Below are positions 20,084 to 31,960 of a stretch of DNA of 33,016 nt, piece after piece. The position numbers were made by a program, and so were the translations under genes. Each line of letters starts with the position of its first letter. Position 1 is the first letter of the stretch. Under the pieces are notes generated by a model. That model saw only the letters and a list, made by a program, of their open reading frames with translations, ran no database searches and was not told where the DNA came from. Source of the DNA: Escherichia coli. GTDB taxonomy: Bacteria > Pseudomonadota > Gammaproteobacteria > Enterobacterales > Enterobacteriaceae. Location: NCBI RefSeq assembly GCF_003334385.1, contig NZ_QOWN01000050.1; one strand, given 5' to 3'.

Positions 20084-21404
20084 TTAACCGTGTTTATTTT
20101 TCAGTTCAAAGCGTGGTGATACCAGACCATACAGTGTCCAACCAAGGAAGGTCACGATGGAACCGTACAGCATGGCTTCTTCCCCGGATGAGTACAGCGC
20201 ATAAAAGCTATACATCGCGCCAACAAAAGCAACAAAGTTTGCAACTTTCGCTTTTGAGGGGGGCACATTAGCGACCTTCTGAATAATGACTAATGCCGCC
20301 ATTGACAGAATATACGGAATGATATTGGTCACCACGGCCAGGTTAACCAGCACGTTGAACTGACTGTTTAGCGACGGGCTAATGGTCATCAGTGCCAATC
20401 CACTCTGAATAATCACAATGGTCAACATTCCCTGCACCGGTGCATCCACTTTGGTTACACGGGAGAAAATTTTAGGGAAGTAGCCTTCATCAGATGAAGA
20501 TTTAAACACCTGGGCAATGGTGAACTGCCAGCCAAGTAGCGAACCGCAGCAGGACATCACCATCAGCGCCATAATGACTTTACCCACTTCCGGCGTGAAC
20601 ATCTGCGCGAAGGCCAGACCAAATGGTGCCGTTGAATTTGCCAGCTCCATATTTGGCACAATCCCGGCAATCACGTTGGTGGAGACGATATAAATCACCG
20701 CCGCACCTAACGTACCGCCGAGTACCGCGATTGGCACATTACGTTCCGGGTTTTCCACTACATCAGTATTCGCACACGCAGACTCCAGACCAAGAAAAGC
20801 TCACAGCGTCATAGCGATGGAAGAAACCTACCGCACTGAAGAACGGTGCATGATGCGGATTCCAGGAATCAACGTACAGCGTCGGGCTAAACCAGAACCA
20901 GCCAATAATGCACAGACCGACGACCGGAATAATGACCCCCCACACGGTAATGCTACTGATTTGCCCGGTAATGCGCGCACCACCAAAGTTAGCCACGGTA
21001 CAAATCCACAGCACCCCGATGGTCGCAAGACCAATCTGCACTGGCGACAAACTCGCGCCGAGCAGTTCGGTGCCGTAACCAACCGCCGAAATAGCAATCG
21101 CGACGTTAGCAATCAGCAGTGAGACGCCGTAGGTATAGTTCGCCATAAAGTTACCGGATTTACCGAAAGCATACTCGGCATAACCGCCCATACCGCCTGA
21201 TTTACGGCTGAACATACCGCATTTTGCGAATGCCCATGCCAGTGCCATTGAGCCTACGGCTGTCACCAGCCAGGAGATAATTGAGATTGTCCCGACTTCG
21301 GCAAGCTTTGTCGGCAGCATGATGATACCGGAGCCCATCATGTTGACCATCGTCAGTATGGTTAACTGAACGACGCCCATTTTGTTCGATTTAGCCTGAC
21401 TCAT
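20084..21404 (-). pseudogene. potE: putrescine-ornithine antiporter PotE, reading frame disrupted
   Basis: Two track ORFs in different frames (20763..21404 and 20084..20758) together cover the 439-aa PotE. The frame breaks after ..FFSAVG by one extra T in a T-run (+ strand AAA at 20824..20826), and the restored frame reads SSIAMTL-stop-AFLGLESACANTDVVENPERNV, with TGA (+ strand 20801..20803) where Trp is expected. Confidence 0.8.
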
Positions 21405-23599
21405 AATTTTTCCCCTTTCAACAGGGTGCTTTGCGCATCACGAGGCTTGATGACATAGCACCAAACTTGCTTACGACCATCATGTTCTTCGATATAGACA
21501 CCCTGCAGCTCCGGTGCAAAACCTGGCAGCAGGTTGATCCCTTCTTCCAGAGCGCTGAAGTAACGCAGAACAGCACCACCCCAGATTTCACCCGGAACAA
21601 CACACAGCACACCCGGAGGATAAGGAAGCGCACCTTCGGCAGCGATACGGCCTTCTGCATCCGGCAGACGAACCAGTTCCACTTCACCGCGTAAATAGGC
21701 GTAGTTGGCTTCTTGCGGATTCATGCTGACGCGTGGGAAGTGCTCCTTACGGAACATCTCTTTTTGCAGTTGTTTCACGTTGTGGCGGGCATACAAATCA
21801 TGCATTTCCTGACACAACTGACGCAGGGTATAACCGGCGTAGCGCTCTTCATGCTGTTTGTAGATGGAAGGTAGCACTTCTGCTAATGGCGCGTCGGACT
21901 CAAGCAGTTTTTCGAAGCGTACCAGCAGGGCAACAAGTTGCTGAAGTTTGGCCATATCTTCTGCCGGAGTCAGCAGGAAGAGGATGGAGTTAAGATCGCA
22001 TTTTTCCGGCACTACGCCATTTTCGCGCAGGAAGTTAGCAAGAATCGTCGCGGGTACACCGAACGCTTCATATTCGCCGTTACGTGCATCAATACCTGGG
22101 GTTGTCAGCAACAGTTTGCATGGATCGACAAAGTATTGATTCTCTGCATAGCCTTCAAAAGAATGCCAGTGTTCCCCTGGTACAAACTGGAAGAAGCGCA
22201 GATCAACCGCAATTTGCGCTGTTTCATACGACTGCCAGGGTTTACCATCCACCAGTTCAGGTACGAACGGACGAATATGCTGACAGTTATCGAGGATCAG
22301 TTTGCGGGCATTAATGCCATTTACCACACAATCCATCCACATATTACGACCGCTGACACCTTCATGCATTTTGGCGTTGATATCCAGTGCGGCAAACAGC
22401 GGATAGAACGGGCTGGTGGAGGCGTGCATCATAAAGGCGTTGTTCATGCGTTTGTGCGGTACATAACGCTGTTGCCCTTTGATGTGGCTGTCTTTTTTAT
22501 GAATTTGTGAAGTCTGAGAAAAACCAGCCTGTTGTTTATGCACAGATTGCGTAACCAGAATACCCGGATCGTTCTCATTAAGATCCAGCAACAGCGGCGA
22601 ACAGTCCGCCATCATCGGAATAAACTGTTCATAGCCGACCCATGCTGAGTCAAACAGGATGTAGTCACACAGATGACCAATTTTATCCACCACTTGGCGG
22701 GCGTTATAAATCGTACCGTCGTAGGTGCCTAACTGAATCACAGCGAGGCGGAAAGGACGAGCCTCTTTTGCCCGCTGCGGTGCGACTTCCGCGATCAGCT
22801 CACGCAGGTAACTTTCTTCAAAACAGTGCGCATCAATGCCACCGATAAAGCCATACGGGTTACGTGCCGTTTCCAGATAAACCGGTGTTGCACCAGCCTG
22901 TAGCAACGCTCCGTGGTGGTTAGATTTGTGGTTATTGCGATCAAACAGCACCAGATCACCCGGTGTTAGCAGGGCGTTTAAAACCACTTTGTTAGAAGAT
23001 GAAGTGCCATTTAAAACGAAGTAGGTTTTATCGGCATTAAACACTTTTGCCGCATGTTGCTGTGCAATGCATGGCGCGCCTTCGTGAATCAGCAGATCGC
23101 CCATCGCTACGTCGGCGTTGCACAAGTCGGCACGGAACAGCGCCTCACCAAAGTATTCCACAAACTGATTCCCCGCCGGATGGCGACGGAAAAATTCGCC
23201 GCCCTGATGACCAGGGCAATCAAACGCGCTGTTACCTTGATTGACATAATCGACCAGTGCGCGGAAGAAAGGTGGGCGCAGTTGAGTTTCATAATGGCTG
23301 GCAGCGGTTTCTAACTGGCGACCATAAAATTCTCGTCGCGATTCGCAATTCTCAAAGACACCCGAAATACGGGGCAAATACTCTGCGGGTACACGTTCTT
23401 GATTTTCAGTAGCAATAAATACCGGGATGCCATAACCCGTGGCATCGATTTCATCGAGTTTTCCGCATGTAACATCGTTGAGCGATAAAACTATTGCCGC
23501 CACATCGATATTACGACTTTCATTAATGTAGATACATTCTCGCTGCGTGGTAAAACAGTCCGGGCAAGAATCACTAACCGCAATTTTTAATTTTGACAT
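21401..23599 (-). CDS. speF: inducible (degradative) ornithine decarboxylase, 732 aa
   Basis: 732-aa PLP-dependent decarboxylase beginning MSKLKIAVSDSCPDCF; its stop overlaps the potE ATG. Confidence 0.95.
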   Translation of the reverse strand: MSKLKIAVSDSCPDCFTTQRECIYINESRNIDVAAIVLSLNDVTCGKLDEIDATGYGIPVFIATENQERVPAEYLPRISGVFENCESRREFYGRQLETAASHYETQLRPPFFRALVDYVNQGNSAFDCPGHQGGEFFRRHPAGNQFVEYFGEALFRADLCNADVAMGDLLIHEGAPCIAQQHAAKVFNADKTYFVLNGTSSSNKVVLNALLTPGDLVLFDRNNHKSNHHGALLQAGATPVYLETARNPYGFIGGIDAHCFEESYLRELIAEVAPQRAKEARPFRLAVIQLGTYDGTIYNARQVVDKIGHLCDYILFDSAWVGYEQFIPMMADCSPLLLDLNENDPGILVTQSVHKQQAGFSQTSQIHKKDSHIKGQQRYVPHKRMNNAFMMHASTSPFYPLFAALDINAKMHEGVSGRNMWMDCVVNGINARKLILDNCQHIRPFVPELVDGKPWQSYETAQIAVDLRFFQFVPGEHWHSFEGYAENQYFVDPCKLLLTTPGIDARNGEYEAFGVPATILANFLRENGVVPEKCDLNSILFLLTPAEDMAKLQQLVALLVRFEKLLESDAPLAEVLPSIYKQHEERYAGYTLRQLCQEMHDLYARHNVKQLQKEMFRKEHFPRVSMNPQEANYAYLRGEVELVRLPDAEGRIAAEGALPYPPGVLCVVPGEIWGGAVLRYFSALEEGINLLPGFAPELQGVYIEEHDGRKQVWCYVIKPRDAQSTLLKGEKL

Positions 23600-31871: not shown

Positions 31872-31960
31872 CAGAACGCCTCCGCATTGATCAGGGCATA
31901 AACCAGATAACCCAGTAATAAAAACACCAGCAATACGCCGGTTATCACGCCTGCACTCAC
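31871..31960 (-). CDS. kdpF: KdpF, 29-aa hydrophobic subunit, GTG start
   Basis: GTG-AGT-GCA-GGC... encodes (M)[28 protein letters not shown]; its TGA overlaps the kdpA ATG. Confidence 0.8.

Follow-up and report, generated by a model that had tools for sequence, protein, structure and literature searches.

Stop/start overlaps in the speFL-speF-potE and kdpFABC-kdpDE operons of an Escherichia coli clone with inactivated kdp genes

Genes, overlaps and conservation of the junctions

We examined the gene junctions of the speFL-speF-potE and kdpFABC-kdpDE operons on a 33,016-nt stretch of the E. coli chromosome (hereafter the window), which is the complete contig QOWN01000050.1 of the draft assembly GCA_003334385.1. 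The window runs from the end of the metT tRNA operon through asnB, nag, glnS, chiP, fur, fldA, seqA, pgm, potE-speF-speFL and kdpEDCBAF to ybfA and rhsC, and all of the genes at issue here (speF, potE and the kdp genes) lie on the minus strand (Table 1). Two fully annotated complete genomes, KE58 and SCU-104, have the same gene order and match the window at 99.94% and 99.97% identity, respectively, SCU-104 being the closest relative of the clone from which the window derives. The gene limits agree with the RefSeq annotation of near-identical genomes and with alignments that start at residue 1 in a further 80 Enterobacterales loci. In gene order, strand, boundaries and junction geometry the clone matches the K-12-type kdpFABC-kdpDE and speFL-speF-potE systems (RefSeq); the speFL open reading frame (ORF) is intact, and KdpA, KdpB, KdpF, KdpE and SpeF show no amino-acid differences from the proteins of KE58 and SCU-104. 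The clone differs from the K-12-type systems, however, in an amber codon in kdpC (W36*), an ATA start codon in kdpD (together with the substitutions G200E and Q510R), a 4-bp operator spacer and a frameshift in potE.

Table 1. Positions in the window of the genes, overlaps and lesions discussed in the text
Feature	Position	Strand	Remarks
potE, frameshifted	20084..21404	-	stop at codon 214
speF, intact, ornithine decarboxylase	21401..23599	-	no coding differences from KE58 and SCU-104 (WP_000040192.1)
kdpE, intact, GTG start	24195..24872	-	from sequence reading and relatives
kdpD, full-length ORF, ATA start, G200E and Q510R	24869..27553	-	from comparison with relatives
kdpC, pseudogene through amber at codon 36	27546..28118	-	NCBI record calls no gene there
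kdpB, intact	28127..30175	-	8-nt gap to kdpC
kdpA, intact	30198..31871	-	22-nt gap to kdpB
kdpF, intact, GTG start	31871..31960	-	from sequence reading and relatives
speF stop/potE start, ATGA, 4 nt	21401..21404	-	speF ...AAA TTA TGA at 21403-21401; potE ATG 21404-21402
kdpD stop/kdpE start, GTGA, 4 nt	24869..24872	-	kdpD ...GAT ATG TGA at 24871-24869; kdpE GTG 24872-24870
kdpC stop/kdpD start, ATAAATAA, 8 nt	27546..27553	-	kdpC ...GAT AAA TAA at 27548-27546; kdpD ATA 27553-27551
kdpF stop/kdpA start, TGATG, 1 nt	31871..31871	-	kdpF TGA 31873-31871; kdpA ATG 31871-31869
In-frame TTG directly 5' of ATA, candidate replacement kdpD start	27554..27556	-	895-aa product, 11-nt overlap with kdpC
kdpC amber W36*, TGG to TAG	28011..28013	-	TGG in relatives; single coding-strand G to A
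KdpE operator of the kdpFABC promoter, 1-bp spacer deletion	32043..32058	-	TTTATA, CTTT, TTTACA; spacer of 4 bp instead of 5

An earlier note on this DNA had claimed overlaps at speF/potE, kdpD/kdpE, kdpC/kdpD and kdpF/kdpA, and our reading of every junction directly on the minus strand found all four of them, while kdpA/kdpB and kdpB/kdpC are separated by short gaps. The note had described the kdpD/kdpE overlap as ATGTGA; this string does occur, but the ATG in it encodes the final methionine of KdpD, and kdpE reads in another frame and starts at GTG. The kdpC/kdpD overlap reads ATAAATAA in the clone and ATGAATAA in its relatives. Overlaps of this kind are a common and known design of E. coli operons and are already present in standard annotation. 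Among same-strand gene pairs of E. coli a spacing of -4 is the most frequent, with -1 and -8 next (Huber et al. 2023, PMC10666635), 707 of 2,987 such pairs (24%) fall between -8 and +6, and subunits of complexes are enriched among the overlapping pairs (PMC10666635). Four of the six junctions examined here fall within this range (binomial P 0.03 against the genome-wide 24%), a value that overstates the surprise because pairs within operons overlap more often than gene pairs overall. As to chance, the overlap motifs by themselves are trivial.

To see whether the geometry of these junctions persists while sequence diverges, we compared 80 Enterobacterales kdp loci with KdpD identities of 62-99%, in which genes were placed by tblastn and the start was taken as the position aligned to residue 1. 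The 1-nt overlap of kdpF and kdpA was found in 67 of 72 loci (TGATG in 61, TAATG in 6), and the contexts of the other five resemble a spacing of 0 or +1 nt. For kdpD/kdpE the 4-nt overlap was present in 55 of the 59 loci that have kdpE after kdpD (GTGA in 54, ATGA in 1), a count that leaves out the Pantoea/Erwinia loci, which we checked and which have no kdpE downstream of kdpD. ATGA joins speF to potE in all 21 Enterobacterales loci that have this pair. The kdpA/kdpB and kdpB/kdpC junctions show mostly short gaps of drifting length across the loci, with a kdpA/kdpB spacing of -4 in 10 of them. The overlaps of kdpF/kdpA (-1), kdpD/kdpE (-4) and speF/potE (-4) are maintained features of these junctions.

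The overlap of kdpC and kdpD has a different history. Its -8 geometry occurs in 3 of 77 loci, all of them Escherichia, and the spacing in other genera runs from -4 to +254 nt, so that the -8 overlap is a recent, Escherichia-specific arrangement at the border between the kdpFABC and kdpDE operons. No other sampled genus has the kdpD start 8 nt within kdpC, and the Shine-Dalgarno (SD) sequence at that junction is likewise weakest in Escherichia. The junction was apparently remodelled within this lineage.

The ribosome-binding signals in the window range widely, with anti-SD duplex energies of -10.6 kcal/mol for kdpF, -9.5 for kdpA, -7.8 for potE, -6.3 for kdpC, -6.1 for kdpE, -4.7 for kdpB and -3.1 for kdpD. 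The kdpD SD is the weakest of the cluster and lies close to the in-gene background, which has a median of -3.2. Upstream of potE the SD is GGGGA, 6 nt from the start; that of kdpA is GGAGG, which is present in 99% of loci and lies inside the upstream coding sequence; and that of kdpE is GAGGA, which lies within the last kdpD codons and is conserved across the 80 loci. Other genera keep an AAGGA ahead of kdpD (median energy -5.4) that is absent in Escherichia.

Lesions in kdp and potE

The kdpC amber and the kdpD start change, on which the earlier note had built its expectation of altered downstream translation, are both real, as both are reproduced exactly by an independent read assembly. The assembly in question, Logan contig ERR1948963_157, was built from run ERR1948963, is listed for 6 samples and matches window positions 18481-32679 exactly over its whole length; it contains the potE frameshift, the kdpD Q510R substitution and ATA start, the kdpC amber and a shortened run of T in the operator. 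A literature search on the accessions of the draft assembly and the run turned up nothing of relevance. It could be argued that the amber, the ATA, the frameshift and the run of six T are errors of sequencing or assembly in a draft contig and that the strain is really wild type, since the source is a draft assembly and two of the changes are shifts in homopolymer length (AA to AAA at 20824, and from 7 to 6 bases in an A/T run at 32046). However, the independent assembly carries all of the lesions, the exact KdpD protein is found on 5 contigs (NCBI protein accessions are listed for it) and in NCBI draft assemblies, and the ATA start is also present in the complete genome of SCU-104. We therefore regard an error of this sort as extremely improbable, and sequencing error was rejected as the origin of the lesions because the independent read assembly reproduces them.

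The lesions are rare in the species. In a panel of 5,426 complete E. coli genomes, with the genomes matched by each probe as denominators, the kdpC amber was found in 0 of 1811 (61-nt probe), the potE frameshift in 0 of 2640, kdpD Q510R in 0 of 5413, the kdpD ATA start in 1 of 5326 (SCU-104) and the six-T operator run in 3 of 4748. The clone shares the ATA start and G200E with SCU-104, in which kdpFABC and the operator are intact; its private changes in this system are the amber codon in kdpC, the 1-bp loss in the operator and Q510R. Five of the seven clone-private changes in the 33 kb fall in potE-kdp, which makes up 28% of the window (binomial P 0.02, post hoc), and this clustering would fit relaxed constraint.

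The KdpC subunit is essential to the pump. As the amber falls at codon 36 of 190 and leaves 35 residues, the clone should be null for KdpC and its pump dead, although kdpF, kdpA and kdpB are intact. We also considered, and rejected, a restart of translation in kdpC past the amber, as the only in-frame starts there have weak SDs, and judging from the topology of KdpC a restart product would be without the N-terminal membrane helix. We found no evidence of an amber suppressor in the window, where the tRNA-Gln anticodon is the wild-type UUG; glnV, the supE locus, is located just beyond the contig. The promoter of kdpFABC is altered as well. The half-sites and 5-bp spacer of the KdpE operator have been defined experimentally (PMC3264566), and of 71 Enterobacterales loci 66 have a spacer of 5 bp and none has one of 4 bp, but in the clone one T of the T-run has been lost, which leaves the TTTATA and TTTACA half-sites 4 bp apart. 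Because of the kdpC null and the 4-bp spacer, any downstream effects are moot for K+ uptake in this clone.

The change of the kdpD start from ATG to ATA is a single G to A, and the same base change gives the KdpC substitution E190K. The kdpD ORF is otherwise full length and kdpE is intact, and an in-frame TTG stands one codon upstream of the ATA. Annotation pipelines disagree on the start, PGAP calling ATA in SCU-104 (894 aa) and the Logan gene caller TTG (895 aa), and the exact 895-aa product (MINNEPL...) is called from TTG in independent Logan assemblies. Initiation relative to AUG has been put at 0.02-3% for AUA, with UUG in the 10-100% class (Hecht et al., bioRxiv 10.1101/063800), and UUG is more likely than AUA to be the start of kdpD. 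The start change may therefore be partly buffered by the adjacent TTG, and KdpD is probably reduced in level rather than absent. Q510R (window 26025) changes YREQRTR to YRERRTR in an arginine-rich segment right after the last transmembrane helix of KdpD. Substitutions in this arginine cluster around codon 510 are ones that we take to shift the balance between kinase and phosphatase.

Within speFL-speF-potE the damage is in potE, where an extra A at 20824 (plus strand) produces a +1 frameshift at codon 194, and the resulting 213-aa product is called in Logan assemblies. A second base change at 20801, 23 nt from the frameshift, would be synonymous in the original frame; like the frameshift, it occurs in none of the 2640 matching complete genomes and is present in the independent read assembly.

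Translational coupling and its alternatives

We consider it very likely that the junctions are the ordinary short overlaps of speFL-speF-potE and kdpFABC-kdpDE, three of them conserved and suited to reinitiation and the one between kdpC and kdpD recent, in a clone whose kdp system is decaying. Termination-reinitiation in E. coli makes use of overlaps of -4, -1 and -8 nt, and when the stop codon of the first gene was shifted upstream by 38 nt in three native pairs of this species, 80-100% of reinitiation was lost (PMC10666635). All four overlaps have such a spacing; potE, kdpA and kdpE have an SD embedded in the upstream gene, that of kdpD being weak, and the geometry is kept at every overlap except kdpC/kdpD. 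At kdpF/kdpA, kdpD/kdpE and speF/potE, a ribosome that ends the upstream gene would sit on or beside the downstream start, just past the embedded SD, and could then reinitiate on the downstream gene. Reinitiation of this kind may help to fix the ratios of the pump subunits, of the sensor and regulator pair, and of the enzyme and antiporter pair. The gaps at these three junctions appear too short to hold a terminator and a promoter.

The pairs hyfH-hyfI, ydbH-ynbE and menD-menH studied by Huber et al. 2023 (PMC10666635) offer a close comparison, as they are likewise same-strand pairs with very short overlaps (-1 nt in their case), have the SD inside the upstream gene and encode subunits or partners of one system. 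Coupling was measured in those pairs, whereas it is a prediction for the junctions described here. The kdpC/kdpD junction differs from them further in its -8 overlap, its weak SD and its lack of conservation outside Escherichia.

For the clone itself, the effects of the lesions on translation are all ones that we infer. Ribosomes would leave kdpC at the amber, 457 nt before the kdpD start, and because reinitiation falls with the distance of the upstream stop, reinitiation from kdpC into kdpD should be abolished on read-through transcripts. Synthesis of KdpD would then have to start de novo, on UUG or AUA and behind a weak SD, and the level of the protein would probably be much lower. If kdpD is poorly translated, kdpE would lose its share of reinitiation while keeping its own conserved SD. 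The expectation in the earlier note that the kdpC amber and the kdpD start change could affect translation beyond the proteins directly hit is plausible in principle, and the features described above lend it partial support.

How much KdpD depends on kdpC also turns on transcription. In work by Polarek et al. from 1992, kdpDE is said to have a promoter of its own within kdpC, with expression boosted by read-through on induction. If so, basal synthesis of KdpD cannot depend on coupling, because transcripts from this promoter carry no ribosomes that are translating kdpC. A simple sigma-70 consensus scan of kdpC gave no minus-strand site for such a promoter. A statement quoted in PMC5401905 has most kdpFABC transcripts ending before kdpD and only part of them reading through, and a passage in PMC11018627 has a kdpFABC deletion strain still expressing kdpDE natively.

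Several points weigh against coupling at these junctions. Every downstream gene but kdpD has a good SD of its own, and the accessibilities predicted for the start regions of the overlapping junctions (0.31-0.68 unpaired) do not stand out from the segment means of 0.39-0.55. We looked to these accessibilities for masked starts at the overlapping junctions and saw no sign of them, and nothing in the predictions implies a need for an upstream ribosome. De novo initiation at kdpE, kdpA and potE is possible, since each has its own conserved SD and a ribosome-binding site that is not predicted to be buried. The kept geometry could also reflect in part a constraint on the protein termini and not selection for coupling. 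The inference is weakest at kdpC/kdpD, the very junction on which the earlier note relies. Our literature search found no paper reporting that translation of a downstream gene at these particular junctions depends on the upstream one.

Taken to its end, this line of thought would make the overlaps incidental products of genome compaction, with each gene initiated independently at its own SD and no translational knock-on past the genes hit. The workable spacing of the conserved SDs of potE, kdpA and kdpE and the lack of predicted burial of the start regions fit such a view, as does the ease with which an [A/G/T]TGA motif arises by chance. The kdpC/kdpD spacing, with values between -8 and +254 nt, is free to vary from genus to genus, and coupling at that junction is therefore clearly dispensable. 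However, geometry has stayed near-invariant at three junctions over KdpD identities of 62-99% while neighbouring junctions drifted, and other native overlapping pairs of E. coli depend strongly on upstream translation (PMC10666635). Nor does the presence of an SD argue against coupling, since reinitiation works through the SD as well. We thus find it improbable that compaction alone accounts for the overlaps.

The effect of the kdpC amber might instead be mainly transcriptional, with Rho ending transcription along the 457-nt stretch of kdpC RNA that is left untranslated, which would give fewer read-through transcripts of kdpDE rather than less translation from each. The case resembles classical Rho-dependent nonsense polarity in its early stop codon (codon 36 of 190) and the long ribosome-free stretch before the next gene; E. 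coli transcripts with long untranslated stretches are unstable (PMC10666635), and 78-nt windows in the 3' part of kdpC and at the kdpD start have C/G ratios of 1.2-1.5. On the other hand, an excess of C over G is a weak heuristic, and the region right after the amber is G-rich (C/G 0.57-0.68). Classical polarity also differs from the present case in that this region has no established or documented Rho utilisation site and that kdpDE is believed to own a promoter, which, if it lies downstream of the amber, would leave kdpDE unaffected. We hold a mainly transcriptional effect to be possible but doubtful, and it is compatible with, not exclusive of, the reading of the three conserved junctions as sites of reinitiation.

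The clone looks like a natural lineage that is losing Kdp. One tentative scenario, which we think could be right but would not favour, is that the ATA mutation in the overlap initiated the loss of the regulon, crippling KdpD and making kdpFABC uninducible, and that the kdpC amber, the operator deletion and Q510R followed, so that SCU-104 and the clone would form an allelic series. If this were true, the two would be a native test bed for the dependence of kdpD and kdpE on reinitiation as opposed to the neighbouring UUG, and the pair is in any event a possible cheap natural control for studies of reinitiation and non-canonical starts. The overlaps as such matter little, as spacings of -4, -1 and -8 and their link to coupling are textbook knowledge for E. 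coli, and the genuine knock-out mutations in the kdp genes of this clone deserve more attention. Its kdp system and potE are to be annotated as inactivated by real mutations and not as sequencing noise, with the caveat that kdpD start calls vary by pipeline between ATA and the adjacent TTG, and the kdpC/kdpD overlap is not to be presumed a conserved coupling device.

Other features of the window

An Rfam scan of the window returned only three tRNAs and one small RNA near 2.6 kb, none of them in the potE-kdp range. Both ends of the contig lie in repeats, one at positions 3-271 (a tRNA-Gln/Leu/Met cluster of the metT operon) and the other at about 32.7-33.0 kb (the rhsC element), and these repeats account for the breaks of the draft assembly at both points. 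Downstream of potE lies a 145-nt copy of the 3' end of kdpE (19859-20003, matching 24195-24339 at 90% identity, both on the minus strand), which relatives annotate as a partial winged-helix pseudogene. As a result, speFL-speF-potE sits between two direct repeats of this 3' end, and the arrangement looks like the scar of an island insertion. In many other genera, kdp has no speF-potE beside it. In chiP, two clone-private changes at window positions 12214 and 12704 (D248G and a synonymous change at Leu411) lie 490 nt apart, and this pair may stem from one small recombination tract and not from two mutations that arose independently.

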